From Folioceros fuciformis (lineage: Eukaryota), in the NCBI GenBank assembly GCA_049999805.1, contig JBNGIO010006220.1, positions 142,975 through 162,974 of the forward strand: 20,000 nt of DNA. The letters are read 5' to 3'. The position numbers were made by a program, and so were the translations under genes. The stretch's first letter is position 1. Every line of letters begins with the position of its first letter. Positions 1 through 20,000 of this stretch are shown in pieces. The notes below the pieces were generated by a model that saw nothing but the letters and a program-made list of their open reading frames with translations, searched no databases and had not been told where the DNA came from.

Positions 1-3000
1 ATGGTCAAGATGCTATCGCCTCTAAGCTCAAGCGCTTTTTCAGTGATCCGGAAAGATTCCCTGCTGACCAGTTGCTTGAGATGCAGAGCTTACCAGGTAA
101 CTCTTGTATGCAATCACACCTTCTGATACCGTAGTACGTAACTTATCTCCATAGCTACGGGTGGAGTTCAAGTTGGATAAGGTTGGCATGTGGATAGGTC
201 TGGATACACAGATGCTCTATGATGCGAAGGAGGCAGCCCTGGAGCGTGCTGCGGTCTCTGACTATGAACTGCGCCTTGCACGAGAAGATCTTAGAAGCTT
301 ACAGGATAAATTGGAGAAGCAGGCAGAAAAACTATCGATCCGCTCAACTCCTAGTGAGCGTAGTCTCTTGCAATGCTTTCAGTACTGTCGTGTTGCATTT
401 TGTTGAAGAATCTGAATTTCCACCTGCATGGCCCCCAAAGTCTAGTAACTGGGTAGCTGGGATGATTTGGTTTACTCTTACCGTCCTCTGTCCTGGCTCG
501 CAGAATCTGCGCCTGCAACTATAGCAGAAGCTGTGACAAACACAAACCGCCTGATTCTGCCAGGTCCACTGTTGGAAAACGAAAGACGGGATCTGAATTG
601 CGCAGTTAAGGAGTATCTCGTGACTTGTGGGTACAAGGTCACAGCAATGACATTTCTGGAAGAGGTATTGCCTGTTGCAACAATTGTATGCAGATTGGGT
701 TGCACCCAGCAGAGAACGTGTAAGACTGTTTGTGGCTATGAACAGGTTGAAGATCAAGATCTTGATGCATGGCAGAATCAGGTTGCACATGTGCCTGATG
801 CGCTTCGAAGATATTACTTGCAGTTCCTAAGTACTGGCACCGATCAGATTGAGGTATACTGCTACTATTTTCCGCTCTTGTGCCCCTAGTCTGGCTTGAA
901 CTGTTCTACATTTGCGACTTGTAGTTCAGTTTCTGTTCAACAGGGGTGCTGTCTTGGAAGCATGTTCTGTAACACACCCACTGCTGTTTAACTTCCAGCG
1001 TTGGGGTCCGGCAGAAAATGGGATTTCTGCAGGAGCAAAATGCAGCTTTGTCTTTAGGAAAGGAGGTTTTAGAGAAGGAGATGTCCTCTTTGAGTAAGCA
1101 GCTAGAAGCTTCAAAGAAAGAGTTCAAAGGGAAAGAGCAGCAGTCGAAGGAGAAAGATCAGCAGGCAAGGAACTGATTTGTGTTAGTGTGTCAGTGCAAG
1201 CTATAATGCGGTGACTCATCAGCCGTCTTGCTTACGCAGATACTGCACCTAACAGACTCTTTAGAACGTGCTATTCATGAAGTAAATGATCTCAGATTGG
1301 AAGTGACATCACTGAAGCTTGATCTTGAAAGGTCAAGATCAAGTCAAGCAAATGCAAGCCATGTTACTCCAACGCAAACGGAAGTTGAGGATGATGTCTC
1401 TCCGGCCAATAAAGCTGCGCTAAGACAAGAAATGCCTACCGAAGTGGAACAAGCCATCATGGGAAACCCTGCCCTTGACACACTTTCTGACAGTCCTATT
1501 CAGGAAATAGTGGAGCCAAAATGTCAGCAATGCACTGAGAAGCAAGCCGTGGTAAGCTCTGTTTGTTAAAACTGGCACCATCATCAAGCCCATCCTGGTG
1601 TTCATGATTGTCACTCAAGTTGGCATCTGATTTGTGTAGGAATTGGAGACGGTACAGATTCTTGCTGAAGCTTTACCCAAGATAGTGCCCTATGTGCTGA
1701 TCAACCATCGTGAGGTAATTGGAGGTTCTTTCGTTTGGTTGTGTGGCAAAGTCTTTGGATGTAGTACTCCAATCTTATCTTGATACCTGACGTTTGGCTG
1801 CAGGAGCTCCTTCCCCTTATGATGTGTGCTATTGAACGCCATCCTGATAGCATAGTCCGTGACTCTCTTACCCACCACCTCTTCAATTTAATCAAGCGTC
1901 CGGATGAGCTGCAGAGACGGATCATCATGGATGTAAGGCTATTTTTTGTTTGGAATGGTTTCCATGAGGGTCCAGTCTGTGTGAGAAAGGAAGAGAGGAT
2001 ATCAGATTTTGTTGCACAGAAAATTAATCATTTGTTGCTGAAATCACGCAAAACGTGTCCTGTGTTTGACAGGCTTGTGTTTCTTTGTCCAAGAGTCTTG
2101 GTGAGATGCGAACTGAAACAGAGTTGCTTCCTCAATGCTGGGAGCAGGTAATTGGTTATCTACACCTGAGGAGTACGTTATTCTTGCAATCTAGAGTATG
2201 TTGGCAGTCTACACTATTCTTGAATAGACCTCCTATGTGCCTGCGGGGCTACTTGCCAAAATGTTTGACACATCTCCCTGTCATGGTTAGATAAATCACA
2301 AGAATGAAGAACGGAGACTGCTTGTGGCACAATCCTGTGGGGAGCTTGGACAGTTTGTCAGGCCAGAGATGCGAACGTCATTAATTCTGTCCATTGTACA
2401 TCAACTTGTCGAGGATTCAGCTCCAATTGTCCGAGAAGCAGCAGCGAACAATCTGGCTCTTCTACTTCCACTTTTCTCCAACATGGAGAAGTATTTCAAG
2501 GTCAGCACTGCTAAGATATGCTGGGGAGCAAACATGGCGCAGGATATCTGACTCCAAAGATGGTTACAAAAGTAAGCACCTAGTGCTATGTAGAGTAGAT
2601 TGTTAGGATTCTGGGTCCCCCTAAGCTCAGGTTTGTAATCTAGTTAAATCATTGCATACCTCATGCGAGTCTCTGTGGGTTGCAGGTGGAAGAGCTCTTA
2701 TTTCAGCTGGTCTCTGATCCATCAGCGATTGTTGTGGAGACTACCCTCAAGAAACTTCTTCCTGCTGTATTAACATGGATGGAGTCCGGAAGAAAACCCC
2801 TACTGCCCCTACTCCGATCCCTTCTTGTGCACCTCTTAGGTCATGCGAAGGTGAGCTTTGTGGGGGTGGCGACCTCCCAAGGTTTTGGAAAGTATCACAA
2901 ACTTTGTCATGAGAGTTTTGTCTGACGTATGGAGTCTGAGATCACTGTTTCCTATGTTGGATGGCAGAGATGCCCTCCTGTATCAGGTGTAGAGAAATCT

Positions 3001-5235
3001 GCAGAAGCCCACCTACGAGTGTTGGGAGAGAAGGAGCGGTGGAGTATCGACGTTTTGTTGCAGATGTTGACTCAACTTTTGCCAGCCATACGAGACGCTG
3101 CTTTAACTAGCTCTCCCTTCAAGGATGCTGTACAGGAGGGCTCTCATGAATCTGGTTTTTCGGATGACCTTGTCAGATTGTTTGCTGAGTAAGTGGTGAT
3201 GTGTGGCGAAAACGTTTTGCTATATTTCCTCCGGCATCTGATGACGGCTCTTATCTCAGGACGGAGGTTGACTGGGTTATCCTTGATTGGATGTTTGAGG
3301 ACTGCTTTCCAGCTTTGCTGCAACTTGCTTGCATGTTACCAGCCAGGGAAGAGATTCTTCGCACACGACTTTGCAAGGTATGCCTGGTGTGCCAATTGAC
3401 CACTTAAAACGCGTTCATGGGGTTGTGTGGACTTTGTGCTCAATTGTTAAGAAGTTCCTTTGTTGGACCAGGTGCTAATTTCCATCGATTCATGTTTTGG
3501 AGGCTGCTATCATTCCACTATAGTTGTGCCGATTTTTCTTGCTGCCGTTGGTGATGATGTGGAGCCAAAGCATCTGTCGCCCAAGCTCGTCAGTCGAATC
3601 ACTGGTAAACACTGTTTTTTGTGGTGCTTGAAGACGATGCAGCCCAAGCTTCTTGATTCTGAATCGCCAAATACGTGCAGGCCTGAGACCGAGAACAGCA
3701 GCAGAAGAGCAGTTGGCTGGAATGTGTGTTCTTCCTTTGCTGCTAGCTGGAGTGCTCAGTGCGTCGAGTGTGCATCCGGAGTTCTTTGCCGTATACCTGA
3801 GAAATCTGATTTTGCAATCCACATTCAAGCATGGGGCTTGGAGAAGTTCACACTCTCCAGATCTTGTCGATGCTGTTAGATTTCTCTGGTAATTCCTGGT
3901 CTCTCTTTGTCGAACTGATACCAGGAATAATGACTTTGCTTGCTGCCACACGTACTAGCGTATGAATATGTGATGGAAAGGGGTATGACACCGGAACTCT
4001 TTACAGTTCTTTCAAGGATCAACATGGAGCTATAATGGGAGTTCTTTGGGACCTAGTTGTCAATGCAAATGCTCCTGTGAAGGTCACCGCCACAGTTATA
4101 TCAAGGGCATTGGTACGTGGATTGAGTGAGCCTCTCGGGATATGGACATGGAGAACTTCGATTCTGAGTGCTGCTTCTGAAATTCGGTGAATGACTCAGG
4201 TTGGGTATGCGGATCTGAAGCTGGTGACTCAGCAATTGTTGCCAGCGTTGGTGACTCTTGCTTCTGACCCAAACGTCGAAGTTAAGCATTCCAGTATCGA
4301 AGCGTTTGGATCTGTTGCTCAACATTTCAAGGAAGAGGCGGTATTGCAGGATGACTAACTATTCTAGATTTCCCGTTAAGCTTGTTGGCCTCTAGATTGA
4401 GTTTAACTCAGGTGGCTAGATGCAGGTGTTCAAAGTATTTACGGATCTTGCTGCTGAGCAGCGGTTTTGTTGGTATAAACTGCAGGTGGTCGACAAAATA
4501 CGTGTCCAGATGGATGCATTTCTGGAGGATGGATCACACGAAGCTGTTATCAAAGTAGTCCGAACATTTGCTGCCATTTTGCCCGTCTCGGCATCCAATC
4601 TGCGGGACTATATCCTTTTAAGCTTGGTTTTTTATTTGTCCAGCATCTCCTTTCAACTTTTGCGATGCCTATGGGTGAGGGTATTGTCCTTGACTGCGAG
4701 CACATCTGCTGCAGAAACTGCTTGTGTTGTCTTCTGCTGGAACACAGGCAGCATCGCTCATGCGACGCCGTGAAAGAGCTGATGCCTTCAGTGAAGCCAT
4801 TCGTGCACTCGATGCCACAGGTCCGTTGAAAATCTCTGCACACCTGTTGCAGTTGCGCAGAGCGTCGGATATGGCTGCTGACGAATATGCCGTGATTCAG
4901 ATCTTTCCCCCACCAGTGTCAAAGAGCTTCTCCTTCCCACAGTTCAGAATCTTCTTAAGGATTCTGATTCTCTGGATCCAGCACACAAAGAAGCTCTGGA
5001 GGTAATCTTGAAGGAAAGAACTGTGAACAGACTGGAATCCATCAGCAAAGTCATGACCATGGGAAGCCTATTTGGAGAAGGTGGATTTTTGAGCAAGAAA
5101 GAGCTTGGTGATGATACGCCCAGCCCAAACAGCCCGACACCCCCACAAGAGGCAGGCATGCTGAAGCGGATAATAAGAAACAACTACGGCGGAAATTTGT
5201 TCAGCAGGGCGAGTAGCACGACACCTGACCATTGA
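1..5235 (+). CDS. RELCH: RAB11-binding LisH/coiled-coil/HEAT-repeat protein (RELCH/KIAA1468 homologue), 5'-truncated, 20 exons in window
   Basis: Exons by manual splicing: <1-96, 198-353, 504-664, 746-853, 1015-1164, 1240-1551, 1640-1714, 1804-1932, 2073-2147, 2291-2500, 2686-2850, 2968-3188, 3260-3377, 3472-3604, 3681-3888, 4007-4112, 4200-4340, 4486-4609, 4704-4820, 4901-5235 (TGA). Phases are consistent and give about 1045 aa. Motifs characteristic of plant RELCH: KRFFSDPERFP, LisH-like ERRDLNCAVKEYLVTCGYKVTAMTF, LPKIVPYVLINHREELLPLMMCAIERHP, LFNLIKRPDELQRRIIMD, ELLPQCWEQINH, ERRLLVAQSCGEL, RRRERADAFSEAIRALDAT, LDPAHKEALE. Confidence 0.93.
1165..1239 (+). other. Probable GC-AG intron of RELCH gene
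   Basis: The coiled-coil exon reads ...KEKDQQ and then CAG|GCAAGG. An in-frame TGA follows 9 nt later with no GT before it. The phase-0 acceptor TTACGCAG|ATA resumes ILHLTDSLE. Confidence 0.65.
4610..4703 (+). other. U12-type (minor spliceosome) AT-AC intron in RELCH gene
   Basis: 5' site ATATCCTTT at 4610, branch site TCCTTGAC at 4687-4694, 3' site CAC| at 4703. Removal restores the frame LRD-Y-LLQKLLVLSS...RRRERADAF. Confidence 0.93.
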
Positions 5236-5520
5236 AATCATTTTGCACCAGCTCTGAATGATTTTTCATTAGCGGATAACGATTTTGGTGAACGTCTTTT
5301 GTATGCTATGGCCCCCTGCTGTTTATAGTATTGGTTAGTGAAGGTGCTTCCAGCACATTGCAGGTCAAAGTGACGTCTGGTGTCCCCGCGCGTCAACAAG
5401 TGGCCAGGGCTGTTGGCTACGCCGGCGAATAGTTACACCTCGCTTGTTACTAGCTCCTAACCACGTTCACGATTTGGGCATCCAAATTCTAGGATGGATA
5501 GTCACCTTGATTCTCTCAGC

Positions 5521-6529: not shown

Positions 6530-6721
6530 TGGCCTTCTTTTGACAACATGTATCTATTGCTTTGCAAAGAGCATTAGTGGCCTTCTTTTGACAATCTGTA
6601 TCTATTGCTTTGCAAAGGGCATTGGTGGCCTTCTTTTGACAATCTGTATCTATTGCTTTGCAAAGGGCATTGGTAGCCTTCTTTTGACAACATGTATCTA
6701 TTGCTTTGCAAAGAGCATTGG
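6530..6721. repeat. Minisatellite, 4 x 48 bp
   Basis: Unit TGGCCTTCTTTTGACAA(CA/TC)TGTATCTATTGCTTTGCAAAG(A/G)GCATT(A/G)G, four near-identical copies. Confidence 0.95.
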
Positions 6722-7390: not shown

Positions 7391-7818
7391 TTCCATAGTA
7401 TAGAGTAAGTGCTTTGCAACCATTATCTAAAAAAAATTTCACCTCAAAATGTACATTACATCTCAATGTCAAAGGTTACAGCAATGTTTGGAGTTGTGGT
7501 AAGGAAGTGTTTTGAGGTAGAAACATTAAAATGTTTGAGGCAATGACTTGTGCTGTTTGAAACAATGTTTTTACCATCCTTTGGGTACAACATGGTTTGC
7601 AAGTCATATTCTCTTGATTTGCTATCGTAATTTGGTCCACCCCACGGAGGCCCAAGAAAAATAACATTTGCCTTCATATTAGGAGCGAGTTTGAAAAAAT
7701 CTCCAACCATAAATTCAATCCGATGTTCTACTCCATAAACTTTTGCATTATGCATTGCAATCCAATTTTTCTTGGGTTGATGTCGATTACAATAACTTCA
7801 TGACCTTGCATTGCAAAT
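7353..7818 (-). pseudogene. TGS1: Trimethylguanosine synthase (RNA cap hypermethylase) pseudogene fragment, C-terminal catalytic half
   Basis: Minus strand reads FAMQGHEVIVIDINPRKI, frameshift, AMHNAKVYGVEHRIEFMVGDFFKLAPNMKANVIFLGPPWGGPNY...YDLQTMLYPKDG, frameshift, KTLFQTAQVIASNILMFLPQN...QL, stop at 7476-7478, then FEVKFFLDNGCKALTLYYG. These match TGS1 motifs HNA.VYGV, FLSPPWGGP.Y, FLPRN and KA.T.Y.G. Two frameshifts, one premature stop, no introns. Confidence 0.88.
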
Positions 7819-8140: not shown

Positions 8141-8467
8141 GTACTCCGGTTAGGAATGACAAGTGTTAGACCTGTTCCCCATTAGTCATACTTAGATTAG
8201 GAATGACAATTGTTAGACCCATTCCCTATTAGTCGTACTCAGGTTAGGAATGTCAATGGTTAGACATGTTCCCCATTAGTCGTACTCATATTAGGAATGA
8301 CAATTATTAGACCTATTCCCCATTACTTGTACTCAGATTAGGAATGACAATTGTTAGACCCATTCCCCATTAGTCGTACTCAGATTAGGAGTGACAATTG
8401 TTAGACCCATTCCCCACTAGTGGTACTCAGATTAGGAATGACAATTGTTAAACCCATTCCTCATTAG
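8141..8467. repeat. Minisatellite, 7 x 47 bp
   Basis: Unit GTACTCAGATTAGGAATGACAATTGTTAGACCCATTCCCCATTAGTC, with copies starting at 8141, 8188, 8235, 8282, 8329, 8376 and 8423. Confidence 0.95.
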
Positions 8468-9810: not shown

Positions 9811-10092
9811 GTATATAAATATTTAAATTAATAAATTTAAATATAGAATAATAAATTTATTTATATTTCTTTTTTTAAAAGGTATGGTAATGATGCTCAT
9901 GGTAACTGCGAACCATTCAGGCCGCTTTGAAGAAATGAGTCTTATGATACTTTCAGAAAGGTCGTCTTCAATTCTCACAAACTATTGTGAAATACGTTCT
10001 CCATAGGCTAAACTCAAGACCACCATTTGCTAAGAGAACCGAAGTAGCTCTAGGAGTAGCTGGAGATGATGAATTGACCTGCAACAGTTCAT

Positions 10093-10737
10093 GTGAGGCC
10101 TAGGAGTAGACACAGCTAGTTCGATGGTGAGGCCCAGCCGTAGACACACTAGTTCGATGGTGAAGCCTAGGAGTAGACACAGCTAGTTCGATGGTGAGGC
10201 CTAGGAGTAGACAAAGCTAGTTCGATGGTGAGGCCTAATAGTAGACACACCTAGTTCCATGGTGAGGCCTAGGAGTAGACATACCTGGTTAGATGGTGAG
10301 GCCTAGTAGTAGACATAACTAGTTCCATGGTGAGGCCTAGCAGTAGACACAGCTAGTTCGATGGTGAGGCCTAGCAGTAGACACAGCTAGTTCGATGGTA
10401 AGGCCTAGCAGTAGACACAGCTAGTTCGATGGTAAGGCCTAGCAGTAGACACAGCTAGTTCGATGGTGAGGCCTAGCAGTAGACACAGCTAGTTCAATGG
10501 TGAGGCCTAGCAGTAGACACAGCTAGTTCGATGGTAAGGCCTAGCAGTAGACACAGTTAGTTCGATGGTGAGGCCTAGCAGTAGACACAGCTAGTTCGAT
10601 GGTGAGGCCTAGCAGTAGACACAGCTAGTTCAATGGTGAGGCCTAGCAGTAGACACAGCTAGTTCAATGGTGAGGCCTAGCAGTAGACACAGCTAGTTCG
10701 ATGGTGAGGCCTAGCAATGGACACAGCTAATTCTATG
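10093..10737. repeat. Minisatellite, 19 x 34 bp
   Basis: Unit GTGAGGCCTAGCAGTAGACACAGCTAGTTCGATG, head-to-tail with no spacers. One copy is 33 bp. Confidence 0.97.
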
Positions 10738-11188
10738 GTAAGCAAGGTTGCAGTGGTTGAGCTAGGGCATGTCATATATATGGCCTTGTTCTTAGGAGGT
10801 TGAAGCCTCTCTTCATATACAATCCAAAAACTTATTAAACCCCTTTCTAATTTTTGCTCGTTCACTTGCATCACATATGATCCAAAGATTTGGCCCTTCA
10901 GCTCTTACACACTGAAATCCAACATTTATCTTCTAGTTAAATGACCCATAAAACCCAAATTCTAATTTTCCTCTTCTTCACATGTATTACAAATTAAAAT
11001 ATCTATACAAAATTATTCCTAGTAAGACTCCACGACAAAGTTGGAGTTTGAAATCAATTTGTTAAATCCATATTTTCCTCTAGACCATCTTATATCATGG
11101 CCCTTCACCATTGGGAGACTAAAAATTGGTAGGTCAAACTATTTTGTGAACATCAAATCAAGGTTCAAAGGTTAAGTATTATAATGTT

Positions 11189-11645: not shown

Positions 11646-14600
11646 TCAGTAGGCAGCAATGACTTCACCTTTCATGCCGAGTGCAAGTGCCCCCAATTCC
11701 GCACTGTCCTCCATCTTCAAGCCGGGTAACAGTAACGCCCTAGAACCGACGTAGCAGCTCTGTCCGATCTCGCTGGCTTTGAATCCAACTTTTCCTCCTT
11801 CATACAGATGTCCGAAGACGAGAGCATTTCTGCCCACAGCAGTGCCAGCTCTGACTGTCAGCAGATCAGGGTTGAGAGTCAGAAGGGTGTCCATGTAGGC
11901 CACTCTTCCTGCAGAGTCCCCAATGTTTGCTCCAAGTAATTGTAGGTAGATTGAGCCAAGGAGAGAGCCTTTGCCGAGCTCTAGGAAGCTGTTGGACAGG
12001 AGCAGGTTGATTGCTTGCCATGTTGTGTCCCGTAGGGATGTGAAGCCCCACAGTGCGCTGGAACTGCCATCTCTGGTTCTTCCTACCAAGGCCCAACGGG
12101 AGGCGACACTGAATCCTGTGAAGAGGAGGCCGGACAGAAGATATGCTACAGGGAGCAGAGACAGCATCCAGGAAGGTCCTGCTCTTGCTCCGACGAAGGA
12201 GAGTGCGAGTAGTGAGGGATAGTAGGCAAGAGCAAACAGCGTGATGGGAATGAAAAGCTGGAGAAGAGGTTGCATCCAACGACATAGAGCTTGGTTCAGG
12301 ACTTTGCCAAGAGTCAGCACTTCCTGATCTGACGTCTGTTGTTCCATGTCGTGTGGTTTCTTCAAGCCGTCGGTTGGTCCGGCCCGGTCATGGGGTTCCG
12401 CGGTGCGTGTTAGAGCTGGCATCTGCTGGTACCTGCTGGGAGATATTTCAAGGTTCCCTCCCGACACTGCTGGACAAGCAGCGCCTCTCGATTGTTTCCG
12501 TTCTTGCTCCCGCGCCTCTGGAAGTTGCAGCATGACATCAGCTTGCTTAAGTAGCCTCTCCCAAGATGGAGGCAGCGGCTGTCCTGTTCGAAGATATTGA
12601 GCAATGCTATATGCCAGGGAGCGACCATGGTCAATAGAAGCATTTTCCAACGCTGTCTTAGCTGTGACCATATCAATGCTTCTTGTGCCATTTATGGGGT
12701 TGAATCGAAGACGCTCAGTAACCTCTCCATCCAAAATCTCAGTCAGGTGTACCATGCCCACGTCTGTATAATGGTAGGCAGCTTCGTCCCAAGGTTTGGT
12801 GCAGTCAAGCGCATCTTCATTCTCAGTCATGTCTTCTGAGACAGGACGCAGCTGAAGCTGGAAGACGTACTTCACTCCATCCGCAGACAGCAACCTCTTT
12901 CGAAAGTCGTCTGCCAAGAACCGGGGCGGACGAGTATCACTGGGACTTCGAGGAATTGCTCCGGTTTCGGGTGGAATGAAATCGAATGCCTCCACTTTTC
13001 CTTCGTCTTCGCCGAAACGCTCATCTGCTGGACGCATCCTGAACTTGACAAAGTACTCCTGCGAGCTTCCAGACACGCGAAAGAGCCTGGCCACATTGGA
13101 GTAGTAGTGCAGCTCAGCATAGGAATTAGGTAGTCGAAGAGAGTCCCATGATGCGATGCCAGACCGCGGATTCTTCTGCACAAAGGCCACCCTCTGCTCG
13201 TGGCTTTTCATCATGTAGTTGACGAAGTCCACCATGTTCCTGCAATTGAAAGCTCTCCCTGACTTCATTGTCAGATCAAGCATGCTCTGCTCAGCATCTG
13301 ATTCTGACCCGGGTCTCAGAAGTCTCAACGACGCTCCCCGTCCATCGCTTCTGGCATCGTCATCCCCACTCAGACTGTTGCTGTGGCGGATAATGACTCC
13401 ATAGGTCTTGCCAGGAGCGAAGACGTCATGCGCCTGGATGGTATCCGGAAGGTTGCTCAATATGGTCAAGGTGCCCTTTCCTGCCACTCCCAGACGGTGG
13501 AAGAATCTTGCATCCACGGACAGCGTCGTCTTGGCGATGTTCGCAGCTAGGTTCGCAACCAATTTCTTGTAGAGGGGATCCATCTCTCGGATTCGGAGGT
13601 CTTCATCGTTCACCTCTTGCTGTTTCTTGGATTTGGATGGTGCGTTGCCATCTGCAGCATTCTGGTATATCATCACGGGGTTTTCCACACCAACGTACAC
13701 GCCTCCTGCTTTCAGGACAGAGCCAGTAACTGCCACTGAATTTGCTCCGAGGAGAGCCCTGTCCTCCAGCTTCACTCCTGGCAAAAGAACACCCTGTGCC
13801 CCCACAATACATTTCGAACCCACCTCCACCCTGCCAAAATGCATAGAGTGCTTATATTTCGCCTGCTTCACAACAGTCTGGGTCACGGTGCTGGTGATGA
13901 TCTTTGCGAAGTCCCCAAGATGGGATTCATCTCCCAGCGTTAGCAGGTCAGGATCAAGCAAGGCATTGATTCCACGGATGGATGCCATGTTGCCTACCCT
14001 GGCCCCTAAGCTGCGCAGGTAGCACACCAGTGTTTGCGTCCCGGACAAGAACATGGTGAACTTCATGTGTGCAGCAGTTAGCAGGCGGTGCACCAGCCAG
14101 ACTCTGAAGCCCAGGTCCGAATTTACGGGCAGAGCTCCATCCTTGCTCGTTCTCTGGGAAATAGCATTGCCTACGAGGTGCCACTTGAACAGGCAGGTGA
14201 TGGCGCCCAGAGTGAAGCCGTAGACCAAGTAAGCAGCCCCTGAGCAAGCAACTATTAGCAAGGCATCCCTGGAGTTGGCAAACCTGTAGAGGAAGTTGAA
14301 GATGAGCTCGGAGTTCTGGAAAGCTAGGAGAGGTGACAGTCCCGCCATCGCCCATGGCAGAGTTGCTGCAACAGGAAAGCAGAAGAAACCAATCCGAACA
14401 GTGGAGGCAAGTCCTTTGAGTGGACTGCTGTCCTGTATGACCAAGAGCCTGGAGGTGAGCCAGAGAAAGGAGATGTAGGACACGATGGCGGAGACTGTGG
14501 ACACCAGTCCCACAACATACAATCCCCACAGATGCCTCAGCGCTATATGGTACTGGCCCCCCTTTTCAATTTTCACTCCCTGCATCATCAACGTTCAAGC

Positions 14601-17600
14601 AAATTTCAGATCATGGTGTGCTGTGTTCTGTGATCTAGCATCAAGATGGATGATACATACCGGTGTATTGGCAGCAACGTTAACCTGGTCGCCGCGATGC
14701 TTCTTGGCCACCTTTTCACCGATCTCTGTCCTTCCCAAGGCGGGAATGCTTGCTCCAGCGTCTAGGATGGTGCCCTGCTGCACCACTGCGTAAGGTCCGA
14801 CGACGGAACCAGTGCCGATTCGTATAGGTCGGAATCTGACGACCCCTCCCCGCACGTCATGGCTTTGGACGGTCGCACCCTCGCTGACGACAGCACCATT
14901 GCCAACATAGAGCAGGGAGGGATCTGTGATATCCGTACTGTCCAGAAATACATGCTTCCCAATCTGAGCTCCAAGCAGCCGGTACCAGCAGGAGAGGAAG
15001 ACGGTTCCTCGGAGATGGATTCCCACGACATGGTTGGAGGCGAAATCACAGAGACGATAGAGCACCCACCACTGCACATAATCCAAGGACCAGAGGGGAA
15101 TGGCTGTCTGGATGGAGTAGTTCGGCCTGAGCAAAGTGGTGGCGAAGAAGGAGATGCTGAGGGCAGTCAAGGCAAGGTAAGCAATCCAGGCCACAGGCAA
15201 GAGCAGTATGGAGATGAGGAGGGAGGAAAGCCGAGGCAAAGCTGCGTCTTCAGCAGTACCAGGGGTGTAGAGCAGCTTAGCGAGCTGCCCGTAAACGACG
15301 AAGGCCGGAAAGATGATCACAGATGCAATATACAGCAGGCCCAGGACCTGAAGGCACGTAATGACCAGCTTCCGTCTGGAAGAAGGCTCCAGTGCGGATG
15401 CCAGATCGGCATCCGGAATAAGCTCTGTCTCAATCTCCTCCTCAACCAGCCCTCTATCATACCCATCATGATCCAGAGCAGGAGCGTGTACGGCCACTAC
15501 AGGCACATGGGAGATGTGACCTTTGCTTGCTGCGGGAGTGATGGAGGCCTTGTTGAGCAGGGAGAGGGCCATGCTGCTGAGCTCGGAGATGGAACCCGCA
15601 GTGTAGACATCGATGGCCGCAATGTGGACTCCTAGAAACTCCGAAAGCTTCTGCGCTGCCCACACCACCCCAACAGAATCGATCCCGAACGACGTAAGAG
15701 CATCCGTGGTGGAAATCTCGTGGGTCTCCAATCCGGTCCTCTCTCCCACGAGAGTCACAAGATAATCTCGGATTTCCCTCTCGCTCTTCATCCGCCCAGA
15801 GGCTGCAGCTACTTCCACGGCAAGGGAGTTCACAGCCTTCCCATACCCACGCTCTCCGATAGCGACGCTCCCCTGTTCCCTGGGCTCCGGTTTCCCCTTC
15901 GAGCACGCCTCCTTGGCCAGGAGGCCATCGGCCATGTCCGCGAGCTCGGCGATGCATCCCGCGGTGTAGATGTCGATGGCCGCAATGTGGAGCCCCAGGA
16001 AATCCGATAGCTTGGACGCCGCCCACACTACGGCCACCGAATCGATGTTGTAGCTTGTGAAGCTGTGCGTCTCAGAGATTTCCGGTGCAGCAATCCCGGT
16101 CTTCTGTGCCAGAATCTCGCGCAAGAACGCTGTGATATCCGCCCTGCTGGGCCTTCCACGCCCATGCTCGCGGGCAGGTGCAGTCGCGGCATCGCTGGAA
16201 TCCAAAGCGTGGGTCCCGCGGCCAGCACCGGGGAGAGAGGAAACCTGCATGTTGATCGGGGCAGAGTCGCTTCTCCTCATCATCCTCGTCCTGCTCCTTG
16301 CTCTGGGACTCACCAGCACATTCGGCTTCGCAGTGACGAGAGTCCCGTTCAGGAATCTCTGGAGACATTCCAGACGCCGTATCTTCCCGGACGTGGTCTT
16401 GGCGATGGTTCTGGGCTTCACCAGATTGACGTGTGCCACCTCCACGCCGTGCTCTGCTGCCACAGCCGACTTGATCTTCCCGACCAGCTCCGGGTCGACG
16501 TACTTGTCATCCCGCACCTCCGTCACCACGACGATCCCCACATCGTCCGGGCCGGATCCCGCGGCGTCGCCGACGTTGAGAATCCTGTGCAGGGCCGACA
16601 CAGGAGCCCCGAAGGCGGCGCTGCAGCCGGGGCGGATCCCCGTGGTGCAGTTCTCCACCGTCTTCTCGATGTCTGAGGGGTAGATGTTGCGCCCGGCCAC
16701 GATGATGAGGTCCTTGATGCGTCCCGTGAGGAAGAGCATGTCACCAACCAGGCGACCGAGATCACCGGTGCGGAGAAACGTGCGCCCTGCTTGGCCCGCA
16801 GCGCTGCCGGCCACGGGTGGATGACTGCTCTTGACGACATTGTGGAACACCTCCTTGCTCAGCTCCTCCAGCCCCCAGTACCCTATCCCGGAGCTGGGGC
16901 TGCTCACCCAGATTTCCCCTTCCTTCCCCTCCGCCACTTCCTCCCCGGTTTCGGGATTCACAACCCTGATGTCCATGTCCTGGTCCCCCCGCTCCACGTA
17001 CCCGCAGCATACCCTGTTCTCCCAGTCCAGGTAAATCGGCCGCTGCTGCCCGTACGCGACGCAGACGAAGACGCTGTTCTCCGCAAGCCCGTATCCAGGA
17101 GCCACGACCTGCACGCACCATTCCAATTCAGGTGTCGGAATTCACAACTGCTGCTGCGGCAATGAAAATGGGGATTCCCGCCTTAGAGGTTCACCTGCTC
17201 TCGTAGGCCGGAAGGTCGGAATATGTCCAAGAATCGGGACACGGTCTGGTGGCGGACGGGCTCGGCAGAGATCATGATGAAGCGGAGGGAGGAGAGGTCG
17301 AAGGTGGGCACGGGCCGGCCGCTGCTTCTCAGCATTTCCATCCTTCGGATGGTGAGCTCGAAGGCAAAGTTGGGGCCGGCAGTGTGCGTGCCGCGGTAGG
17401 TGCTGAGGGCCTCCATCCACAATAAGGGCCTCTTGATGAAGGTGACGGGGGAGAAGAGGAGCGCCGTCCCTCCCGACACGAGGGCGGTGAAGAGGCCGCC
17501 GATGAGGCCCATATCATGGTACTGCGGGAGCCAGCTGACGAGAACCGTCCTGGAGCTGCTCTTGTAGTGCCGCCGCATGAGCTTCACGTTGTGGATGAGG

Positions 17601-20000
17601 CCTGCGTGGGTGATCATGACGCCCTTGGACTCCCCTGTGGATCCCGAAGTGAACTGGAGGAAGCATACATCTGCGGGATGCGGGGCCTCGAATTCGAACG
17701 TCTCTGCGGACTCCGACGAGGACTCAGAGCTGGAGTAGCCGTTGTCTCTGTCTCTGGGGCTGGTGCTCAGGCCTGGCTCGTCCAGGCTGCTGCTGCTGCC
17801 GCCTTCGCTACCGGACCTGAAGCTGCCGGAGCGGACCGAGTCGGAATTGAAGCTAGAGTTCCTTTTGGGCGAAGGCGGGGGCCGCAGAAACCTGAGGGAC
17901 CTGGGCGACATAGCCTGGGAGTCGGCGTCCGCCGGGAAAGAGGACCTGGTGCTGATCTGCCCGGGGCTGAGCTTGTCCAGGAGCCAGTTGGTCCACCTGG
18001 GCGCGGCCGTGCCGGAGCGCGCATTCCTGGTCCACATGTCTGTGTGATACCACGGCAGGTCCGGCCAGTGCGGGTCCTGGGAGCCCACCAGGCCCGAGGA
18101 CGTGATGCGGCTCTTGAGCATGCCTGCCTTGACGCCGATGTGGTAAGTGGATGTGGACAGAATGGCCTTAGCGGCGCAGGATTTGGCCACATTCTGCACC
18201 TTGAGCAGAGCCTGGGCGCTGCCCGTCGTCCCGGGGTCGGGCGGGATGAGCGGCACTGGTAACACCTGCGGCACCCACAGCACGAATTGGCCACGGAGTC
18301 AGGAGTGTGAGATTCAAGCTGGCTTCCACATTGTTGGAAGCAGGCAGGGCAGGCAGCTGGGGGTGAAGCGTCCATTACTCGAGCGCGGAGACAGCCGAAG
18401 AAGGCGTCCACGAAATCCAGGCCGGGCGGGTGCAGGAGCAAGACGCGGTCCCCGTACTTGAGCTTGGACCTGCTGGTGAGCAGGCGGTGCGCTACGATGG
18501 AGGCTCGCAGATTCAAGTCGGCGTAGGTTCTGGCGTCGGATTCCTTGCCCTGATCATCCAGCCACGTGTAGAGCACCTTATCCTTGGTCACTTCGTGTTT
18601 GGCAAAGAAATTGAGGTAAGCGTCCAGGGTGGGCAGGTCTGGGAACGTGATCCCAGGAGCTTCACTCAGCTCCTCGACAGCGTAGGCTGTGCCTGTGCGT
18701 GCCAAAATCCCACTGCGCCTCCCGCTCTCCACCTCAGGCTCACGCTCAGGTACTTGGATTAGCCTCTGCAAGAAGGAGCTGAAAAGAATGAGTAAAAATT
18801 GGTGCGAGGCGGCAGCCCAGACAGCCTTGGCTACAGCCCCAGCCTTGCCCAGACCACCACGCCCTGTCCTTTGTGTGTGGAAAGCAAAGGATCACCTTGA
18901 CATAGGGCAGAGTGAGGTGTGTAGAGCCGAAGTGTTGCGCGACTAAGCTGATGGAGAAGGCAGCATTTCTCTCGGTGAGCTCAAAAGCTAACAAGCCTCC
19001 AACGTAGTAGGTGTTATTCTGGCCTTGCAATCTGGTCATGTCGTCGTAGAAGCCAGCTTTCATATCTGCATCGGCATTGGGATTGGGATTGGCATTGGCA
19101 TTGGCCCAGTACCAGAATTCGGTTAGAACTTTGAAGTGGGAAGTGGCAAGCGAGGAGGAGATGCCGGCACCGTACTTGTACCCACCTTCACTCTGTACAT
19201 GCGGGAAGTAATTCCACTTGCGTTGCAAAATAAACTCTTCGACGGTGCCTCCGATTTTCTGCACATCTTCGTATACCAAGGCGGTGACTGTGTCCTGCAG
19301 GATTTGTGCATTCCCGTAGGACCAAAACAGGAAAACGTCTGTATCGGGGAAAAATCTTTGCATGGCCACAGGGTGGCCTATCGTGTCGGGGTCGCGGATG
19401 TATTGTTTGAAATGATAAAAGCCAGCTGGAAGGTGCTCTAGACCTTGGATTCTAACCACCGTCGTGTAGTACTCCACTGTGCGCACCTTGGAGAAGCAGA
19501 TGCGTTCTGCTAGCGTCCATCGCAGCAATGGCTCGGCACCGGCTGACGCTGTTTCTGTTTCGGCTGCTGCATCCACATGGTCCGTCCGGCGGGGAGGAAA
19601 TGCCGTCACTCATTCAGTCTGAGACCTCGCTGTCGTTTGGACAGAAGTGCAATGCAAACGCAAATGCAAGCAGCCATCAGCGAATAGGGAGCAGGGAGAA
19701 AGGGATCACTCACTCGCAGACGGCGGCGAGGTCGGGGATCGATATGTGGGATTGGTGCGGAACGGGAGAGCCCCGGTGACGATGATCTTGTCGAACTCCA
19801 GGTCCAGCAGCGACGATTCCCCGGCTTCGGCTTCGGCGGGGGCGACCAGGACGGTAACAGGGCCGGTGTCCGGTCGGCAGATGCGGGTCACCCTGGTGTT
19901 GCAACGGACATCGGAGAGCGAGGCTGCCAGCTTGCGCCACAAGCTGGTGTAGCCGCCTTTCACCCGCGCGATCCTGCCGAGCACCGAGCTCCGATTGAAT
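11646..20000 (-). CDS. Multidomain NRPS-like lipid enzyme: FAD oxidoreductase/fatty-acid-isomerase-like + FAAL-like adenylation + 2 ACP + TM/beta-helix repeats + catalase-related AOS-like haem domain (5'-truncated)
   Basis: Exons on minus strand: >20000-19714, ~19566-19186 (acceptor uncertain, several in-phase CAGs), 19065-18896, 18765-18379, 18265-17195, 17108-14685, 14579-11646 (TGA). All introns are GT-AG with consistent phases, giving about 2550 aa in the window. This joins ORFs 19706-19984, 18746-19609, 17767-18771, 17183-18283, 14595-17126 and 11646-14591. Confidence 0.9.
12590..13515 (-). other. Domain: catalase-related haem enzyme (allene oxide synthase / hydroperoxide lyase-like)
   Basis: RFFHRLG (distal His 13497-13499), IIRHSN...DDDARSDGRGASLR, LR.P.SY.EL.YYS, FQLQL, PWDE, FNP, RSLAY (proximal Tyr 12609-12611). 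Confidence 0.88.
15557..16149 (-). other. Domains: two tandem phosphopantetheine carrier (ACP/PCP) domains
   Basis: SFTSYNIDSVAVV (Ser codon 16038-16040) and ALTSFGIDSVGVV (Ser codon 15675-15677), each followed by KLS.FLG.HIAAID.YTAG.I.EL. Confidence 0.88.
16345..18645 (-). other. Domain: fatty acyl-AMP ligase-like adenylation domain
   Basis: GDRVLLLHPPGLDFVDAFFGCL, FLQFTSGSTGESKG (P-loop), SWLPQYHDMGLIGG, GPNFAFEL, AEPV, PGYGLAE, FLRTGDLG, GRIKDLII, KTTSGKIRR. Confidence 0.93.
18896..20000 (-). other. Domain: FAD-dependent oxidoreductase, C-terminal part (amine-oxidase fold, PUFA-isomerase-like)
   Basis: KGGYTSLWRKLA, FDKIIVTG, QRKWNYFPHVQSE|DMKAGFYDDMTRLQGQNNTYYVGGLLAFEL. Confidence 0.8.

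Follow-up and report, generated by a model that had tools for sequence, protein, structure and literature searches.

We examined a haem domain encoded on the minus strand of a 20,000-nt stretch of the Folioceros fuciformis genome (contig JBNGIO010006220.1, positions 142,975 to 162,974; hereafter the window). The domain is a catalase-related haemoprotein with the fold of allene oxide synthase (AOS), and is neither a classical catalase-type AOS or hydroperoxide lyase (HPL) nor a typical catalase. It does not stand alone as an oxylipin enzyme but belongs to one spliced gene with several domains. The order of domains in this gene is a flavoprotein resembling a polyunsaturated fatty acid isomerase (PAI-like), a fatty acyl-AMP ligase (FAAL), two acyl carrier proteins (ACPs) and a membrane region of the Pls/PosA type into which the haem domain is inserted. 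We tentatively propose that the domain is a Tyr-ligated haem tailoring unit of a membrane-anchored fatty-acid assembly line resembling a nonribosomal peptide synthetase (NRPS), where it would use two-electron, peroxide-dependent chemistry on the line's own acyl chain.

A catalase-related haem domain with a remodelled distal pocket

The haem domain sits in a minus-strand open reading frame (ORF) at 14594-11646. As modelled it covers ~13600-12570, slightly wider than the 12590..13515 given by a first-pass annotation of the same DNA, and every motif that annotation had named is found on the minus strand where it was placed, the Lys codon included. The best match in the PDB is AOS from the coral Plexaura homomalla (1u5u, E 3.2e-24), with true catalases at E 0.005-0.3. 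An AlphaFold2 model of the domain, built on 100 sequences, has a pLDDT of 93.5 and the compact catalase core of AOS-fold haemoproteins (TM 0.81, Z 39.9 and a root-mean-square deviation of 2.4 over 323 residues against 1u5u); against catalases and a mycobacterial small catalase-related protein, Z is about 27-28.

When aligned with 1u5u, the domain's RFFH pairs with RATH, so that Phe takes the place of Thr66 and the distal His that of His67, while the R...Y motif pairs with R349...Y353. This confirms the retention of the distal His and proximal Tyr. With the haem-binding arginines equivalent to Arg64, Arg102 and Arg360 and the proximal Arg also in place, the domain very probably binds haem. In the same alignment DLTMKSG pairs with DIVMNTG and puts a Lys at Asn137; in an alignment with 4e37 this Lys falls opposite the first Asn of DLVGNN in the catalase. 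The assignment of Lys to Asn137 thus comes from two sequence alignments that are free of gaps there, within a fold that matches, and with it both substitutions described earlier, Phe for Thr and Lys for the distal Asn, hold. The structural comparison itself bears out the fold, the Lys pairing being read from sequence. The pairing of a Ser with Lys107 adjoins a one-residue alignment gap.

Two features of catalase-type AOS and HPL are therefore replaced, the Thr directly before the distal His (Phe here) and the distal Asn137 (Lys, as aligned), and no fused lipoxygenase or dioxygenase was found in the parts of the gene within the window or in the full-length orthologue P0110. A typical monofunctional catalase has about 480 or more residues, extra regions and a distal Asn. 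The domain scores 23.2 bits against PF00199 (cut-off 25), reaches a TM of only 0.5 by target length against catalases, has none of the extra catalase regions and carries Lys at the Asn position. Its catalase fold also sets it apart from the P450 fold of the CYP74 plant AOS and HPL enzymes. The earlier proposal that a plant has a catalase-related domain of the AOS fold, distinct from P450s and with its distal pocket remodelled, is thereby supported.

The haem domain is encoded within a single spliced gene

The exons within the window join to give 2558 codons with zero internal stops. A 7540-nt contig from the public run X1 has all six introns spliced out and follows the window from 20000 to 12484 with zero mismatches; the last intron is also spliced out in two further runs. 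Run X1 is flagged only as 'RNA?', and the spliced form of its contig, across six junctions, argues for a transcript. Separate genes for the individual domains are ruled out by this single contig. A degenerate or lineage-specific pseudo-domain is likewise ruled out, the substitutions being family-wide and the frame open and spliced. The first-pass annotation had mentioned in passing a substrate tethered to an ACP, and of its options this is now the best supported, since one transcript carries the FAAL and two ACPs together with the haem domain.

Because the gene begins beyond the window, the N-terminus is described from orthologues, which are about 2,300-2,600 aa long. An earlier gene model with five introns was 51% identical to Selaginella moellendorffii orthologues, and this genome holds at least one copy (a single match). 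The spliced contig also revealed an intron at 19066-19185 that a reading of ORFs would miss, as its 120 nt are in frame and stop-free; it has a GCATTG repeat inside.

The flavoprotein, labelled 'HemY' or amine oxidase in annotations, has 2b9w as its only PDB match for the stretch within the window (E 1.4e-7). Orthologue P0110 aligns to 2b9w over residues 16-440 (E 2.5e-25), so that homology is full-length in the orthologue and only the C-terminal part is readable in this genome. We take 2b9w to be the PUFA isomerase PAI of Propionibacterium acnes; the search tool names it 'putative aminooxidase'. PAI F168 aligns to Ser in plant and bacterial members and the R88 region is left unaligned, both being presumably substrate-channel residues.

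For the adenylation domain, FAAL models are closer than CoA-ligase models and are the top NCBIfam matches (FadD32, E 8.8e-47), at scores below the curated cut-offs. An ACP is adjacent, and the P-loop, the GRIKD hinge and KTTSGKIRR are intact. A Ser/Pro-rich insertion of ~100 residues in this domain (window 17690-18000) is still present in the spliced contig, and most homologues lack it. PF00550 matches two stretches (E 8.4e-18); some orthologues have a single ACP.

The membrane region scores 135-152 bits against TIGR02353, far from the threshold of 423, and an amino-acid adenylation domain is absent; by these measures the protein falls outside the Pls/PosA family. The region does match TIGR02353 below the cut-off (Table 1), and the domain searches show it as three hexapeptide-repeat stretches around the haem domain. 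A Streptomyces Pls/PosA protein has His-x-x-Glu and terminal MKGE motifs that the third unit retains, and orthologue P0007 aligns to the QTHLFE and GALSLLMKGE motifs of that protein. In a model of the C-terminal region of a Perilla orthologue (pLDDT 85), three units follow the carrier protein, each with two long helices and then a left-handed beta-helix. PosA is described with such helix-pair/beta-helix units in the available text of PMC10522769. The haem domain of the Perilla model comes after the second beta-helix and before the third helix pair, which would place it on the same side of the membrane as the ACPs. When the three-repeat model was used for a fold search, the matches listed were only AOS and catalases, and in a search with a Pls protein the 60 matches listed covered only the adenylation/carrier half. 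Among the matches listed, the Pls-type fold is thus without a solved reference. The features of the gene are collected in Table 1.

Table 1. Positions in the window of the multidomain gene, its domains and the motifs of the haem domain
Feature	Position	Strand	Evidence
Multidomain gene, 5′ end beyond the 3′ edge of the window	11646..20000	-	six GT-AG introns, spliced contig
Exons 1-4 in window	20000-19714, 19566-19186, 19065-18896, 18765-18379	-	
Exons 5-7 in window	18265-17195, 17108-14661, 14579-11646	-	
PAI-like flavoprotein, C-terminal part	18900..20000	-	PDB match 2b9w
FAAL domain, Ser-rich insertion ~18000-17690	16330..18680	-	NCBIfam, Pfam AMP-binding
ACP 1, IDSV motif at 16046	15933..16127	-	PF00550
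ACP 2, IDSV motif at 15683	15549..15794	-	PF00550
Pls/PosA-type repeat 1, hydrophobic helix pair and left-handed beta-helix, QxH at 14867-14853	14736..15400	-	TIGR02353 E 1.1e-20, hydropathy, conservation
Pls/PosA-type repeat 2, helix pair and beta-helix	13650..14579	-	30% identity to repeat 3
Catalase-related AOS-fold haem domain, between repeats 2 and 3	12570..13601	-	PDB search, AlphaFold2 model, fold comparison
RFFH: haem Arg (R64), Phe at Thr66, distal His (H67)	13497..13508	-	1u5u alignment
RHSNSLS: haem Arg (R102), Ser at catalase RFS position (AOS Ala104), Ser at Lys107	13368..13388	-	
RHSN motif	13388-13377	-	
DDD..DGRG motif	13364-13335	-	
TMKSG motif	13271-13257	-	
Lys at distal Asn position (N137), codon AAG	13263..13265	-	1u5u and 4e37 alignments
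LRLP..ELHYYS motif	13139-13098	-	
RSLAY motif	12623-12609	-	
Proximal helix: Arg (R349), Tyr ligand (Y353), Arg (R360)	12588..12623	-	1u5u alignment
Pls/PosA-type repeat 3, FGHLYE 11816-11799, terminal GALALGMKGE	11646..12344	-	TIGR02353 E 4.2e-39, below cut-off

The pocket substitutions are conserved across plants

Of 109 homologues that are 637-2000 aa long, 105 have the Phe, 104 the distal His, 106 the Lys and 108 the proximal Tyr; the non-matching rows are gaps or misaligned partial proteins. A set of 61 long homologues covers liverworts, Selaginella and flowering plants, and 54 of these contain the haem domain. The distal His, the RxS Ser, the Lys, the proximal Arg and the equivalents of R64 and R102 are each present in all 54; Phe precedes the His in 48, with Ile in the other six, and the proximal ligand position is Tyr in 48 and His in six. 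As aligned, the Phe and Lys substitutions are thus family-wide and not peculiar to the Folioceros gene, which answers the check on orthologues named in the first-pass annotation. The Lys107 position is Ser in 107/109 and 54/54, and at K60, which has also been proposed to contact the carboxylate, most seed-plant homologues retain the Lys (85/109). Residues round the substrate entrance are strongly conserved, and conservation per 100 residues of the domain is 43-56%, equal to or above that of the beta-helix repeats. A conifer homologue was also found.

The combination of Ile-His, a retained Lys and His for the proximal Tyr belongs to a liverwort clade (P0112/P0261, P0288-P0291; six rows, two of which are models of one Marchantia gene), whose sequences possibly describe a His-ligated haem in a catalase fold.

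The seven long homologues without the haem domain are all from legumes. An in-frame deletion of ~350 residues at a similar junction removes the whole domain, and the flanks share 61-83% identity with the undeleted protein of Phaseolus; in Phaseolus vulgaris the two forms occur together. Legume proteins with the deletion are P0310, P0324, P0328, P0334, P0335, P0341, P0346, P0395 and P0396.

Related assembly lines outside plants

For relatives outside plants we took the 150 best representatives at 50% clustering, many of them unnamed or partial, and classed them by fused domains using probes excised from retrieved proteins. Parts of PAI-like, FAAL, ACP or Pls type occur in 61 rows, plants included, and a lipoxygenase in 20. 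Long non-plant members, those named coming from Archangium and other myxobacteria and from cyanobacteria, have the order FAAL, haem domain, flavoprotein, ACP and release domain, the last being exchangeable between thioesterase, reductase, condensation and acyltransferase domains. A domain of amine-oxidase fold is present in 21 of the 25 long relatives scanned; one flavoprotein that was tested has 2b9w as its best PDB match (E 1.5e-36). Megaenzymes of this bacterial type, with any of the four ends, are encoded at L003:6246-13061, L008:6252-11627 and L010:1944-7391 and include proteins P0119, P0127, P0128, P0144 and P0209. In P0114 two tandem AOS-fold domains are followed by a PAI-like domain and an ACP. 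Among 41 hand-picked ORFs round seven of eight bacterial loci, which is not an exhaustive scan, we saw no conserved gene neighbourhood and no match to a lipoxygenase. A plasmid search returned six weak matches, the catalase-lipoxygenase of Nostoc PCC 7120 among them, and one bacterial cluster and catalase clusters of the ESM Atlas scored below the recognition threshold and serve as a lead only.

Among rows that retain the distal His, the residue preceding it lacks a hydroxyl in 43 of 49 assembly lines (Phe in 33) and is Thr or Ser in 17 of 18 lipoxygenase fusions. In a FastTree phylogeny of 129 of the 151 rows, with trait columns removed, the seven plant rows form a clade inside a group of 40 that is mostly Phe-His and includes 38 assembly-line rows (SH-like 96); most lipoxygenase-fused rows fall apart from it. 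From this tree the Phe before the His appears to predate plants, and of the rows placed in it only those of the plant clade carry the Lys. Pocket residue and architecture are associated with a Fisher p of 5e-10 on raw counts, but this comes down to only two independent pairs on the tree and was rejected as independent evidence.

Chemistry of the haem domain

Four steps can be proposed for the assembly line. The FAAL would adenylate a fatty acid and load the ACPs, a step well supported by homology. The PAI-like flavoprotein may then change the double bonds of a polyunsaturated chain, either by a conjugating isomerisation or by an oxidation that releases H2O2. The haem domain would oxygenate the line's acyl chain with peroxide, supplied as H2O2 from the flavoprotein or as a hydroperoxide on the chain. 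Lastly, as the likeness to Pls/PosA suggests, the three beta-helix repeats may pass the completed acyl chain, perhaps in several rounds, to a membrane acceptor that offers a hydroxyl or an amine.

That the haem domain acts on the line's own acyl chain is probable, because the module of FAAL, ACP, PAI-like and haem domains recurs with swappable release domains. The available text of PMC5617202 proposes Lys107 of coral AOS as the anchor of the free carboxylate, and the loss of this residue fits action on the own chain weakly. The tailoring would be optional, since the legume proteins drop only the haem domain and keep the remainder. Given action on the own chain, we lean towards two-electron O-O cleavage of the peroxidase or peroxygenase kind over the radical rearrangement of AOS and HPL, because the Thr is gone, the catalase-type Ser is restored and a cationic Lys lies over the haem. 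Peroxidases carry an Arg cation at the position where the domain adds this Lys.

A rather unlikely alternative is that the domain is an AOS-, HPL- or isomerase-type enzyme that rearranges hydroperoxides made in trans by plant lipoxygenases, before or after FAAL loading. This would suit an intact His/Tyr/Arg core and a closest solved structure that is by far coral AOS, and lipoxygenase-fused relatives with Thr-His (P0124, P0126) do lie near the assembly-line clade. However, Thr precedes the His in none of the 54 plant domains, and the Thr-His link is reportedly a hallmark of hydroperoxide reaction, to go by the title of a 2016 review by Mashhadi. The K107 equivalent is also lost, and a lipoxygenase is neither fused to the plant proteins nor seen among the bacterial ORFs sampled above. 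A further point in favour of this alternative is that Fg-cat, a fungal catalase, reacts with 13S-hydroperoxides (PMC11719350, available text). The second hydroperoxide-metabolising AOS/HPL of the first-pass annotation is in any case unsupported as stated, with Thr and Lys107 absent family-wide and no fused lipoxygenase.

It is also unlikely that the domain merely destroys H2O2 from the flavin domain, by catalatic or peroxidase activity, and leaves the acyl chain untouched. In the 4e37 alignment the hydrophobic residue before the His and the Ser in RxS are of catalase type, which makes the earlier statement against an activity on H2O2 insecure. Enzymes of the AOS fold can degrade H2O2, the Thr-containing AOS of C. 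imbricata doing so with a kcat of 303 per s (PMC5617202, in the portion available), and a peroxide sink could be dispensed with, as in the legume paralogues. Against this, the extra catalase regions are absent, an invariant Lys for Asn is no catalase feature, and the conservation of the substrate entrance exceeds what a simple sink seems to require. A non-catalytic haem or lipid sensor or scaffold, its distal pocket closed by Phe and Lys (both bulkier than Thr and Asn) and the Lys possibly a sixth haem ligand, is improbable: the Lys persists where the proximal Tyr is His (6/54), some non-plant relatives have lost the distal His and legumes delete the domain, but plants keep that His in 54/54 and conserve the domain at least as well as the beta-helix repeats.

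Several points weigh against two-electron chemistry on the line's own chain. Changes at Asn137 of coral AOS reportedly alter rate more than chemistry (PMC5617202, same portion), so the Lys need not imply new chemistry, and with the H2O2 breakdown by a Thr-containing coral AOS this means that the pocket residues are not clean switches. The Lys at K60 is mostly retained in seed plants. Six assembly-line rows keep Thr-His and several have no distal His, so the module needs no single fixed pocket. Support for the tree comes from FastTree alone, and the link between residue and architecture is phylogenetically confounded. PAI is, as we understand it, an enzyme of free fatty acids and not an oxidase, which makes the source of peroxide a guess. 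While fold, residues, fusion and conservation are observed, all of the chemistry is what we infer from them.

A more far-reaching version would have land plants share with myxobacteria and cyanobacteria an oxylipin assembly line independent of lipoxygenase. There, the PAI-like domain would make a conjugated chain and H2O2, a His/Lys peroxygenase of the catalase fold would oxygenate the ACP-bound chain and, in plants, the Pls-type domain would link oxygenated chains into a so far undescribed lipid oligomer or conjugate. We consider this combination doubtful; if true, it would extend the catalase fold to a chemistry not seen in it before and give plants a polymerase of NRPS-like type.

This large gene has been retained in lineages as far apart as liverworts, lycophytes, conifers, grasses and eudicots, and its remodelled haem pocket hardly varies among them. 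Its product appears to load, modify and pass on fatty acids, which points to a plant lipid pathway, and it bears on the reach of catalase-fold chemistry beyond AOS and HPL. Natural controls exist in the legume paralogues without the haem domain, the liverwort His-for-Tyr paralogues and the soluble bacterial versions with a terminal thioesterase.

Other features of the window

Downstream of the gene, the window contains a tandem array of a 34-bp unit (10086-10739; 19.3 copies, 92% matches) and smaller arrays at 6530-6721 (48 bp) and 8141-8467 (47 bp). On the plus strand, 155-5240 holds a multi-exon gene with LisH-like and HEAT-like stretches which, from its translation, we take to resemble RELCH/KIAA1468, and a short ORF at 7456-7797 presumably resembles a fragment of a TGS1-type RNA cap methyltransferase.

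Relation to known systems

The family is already known but unexplained. Patil et al. reported in 2021 a conserved plant architecture of HemY, FAAL and catalase domains whose function they gave as unknown (PMC8460268), and plant FAALs, Selaginella included, are listed as NRPS-like clusters in PMC12820801. The FAAL-like proteins 'between HemY and catalase domains' of Patil et al. are the same family as the protein described here, which likewise joins a flavoprotein, a FAAL and a catalase-like domain in one chain. In the available portions of the two reports, no AOS-type haem domain, PAI-like flavoprotein, Pls-type C-terminus or active site is discussed. Literature searches, with most subscription journals outside their coverage, found no functional study of the protein and no paper noting the AOS-type pocket, PAI-like domain, Pls-type terminus or bacterial module. 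The architecture is in print; the assignment of its domains as PAI-like, FAAL-ACP, AOS-fold and Pls-type turns 'unknown function' into a testable fatty-acid pathway.

PAI (2b9w) is the structure in the PDB that the N-terminal flavoprotein matches best, in plant as in bacterial members; these differ from it in being part of an assembly line and in having Ser where F168 aligns. Pls/PosA synthetases (TIGR02353) share an adenylation domain, a carrier protein, three helix pairs with left-handed beta-helices and the QxH/xGH and terminal MKGE motifs. In the plant protein, however, a FAAL replaces the amino-acid adenylation domain, a flavoprotein is added, repeats 2 and 3 are separated by the haem domain, and the score falls well short of the curated cut-off. 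The haem domain has the core fold, His/Tyr, the RxS serine and a hydrophobic residue before the His in common with small catalase-related peroxidases (3e4w) and typical catalases, but these are clearly more distant (Z 27-28); the domain has Lys for Asn and no catalase extensions. The nearest systems are the coral AOS and HPL enzymes (Plexaura homomalla 1u5u and 3dy5; Capnella cHPL), which share the fold, ~25% identity, His67, Tyr353 and Arg64/102/349/360. They differ in the residues at which the plant domain has Phe (Thr66), Lys (Asn137) and Ser (Ala104 and Lys107), and whereas the coral enzymes are fused to a lipoxygenase, the plant haem domain is fused to a FAAL-ACP line.
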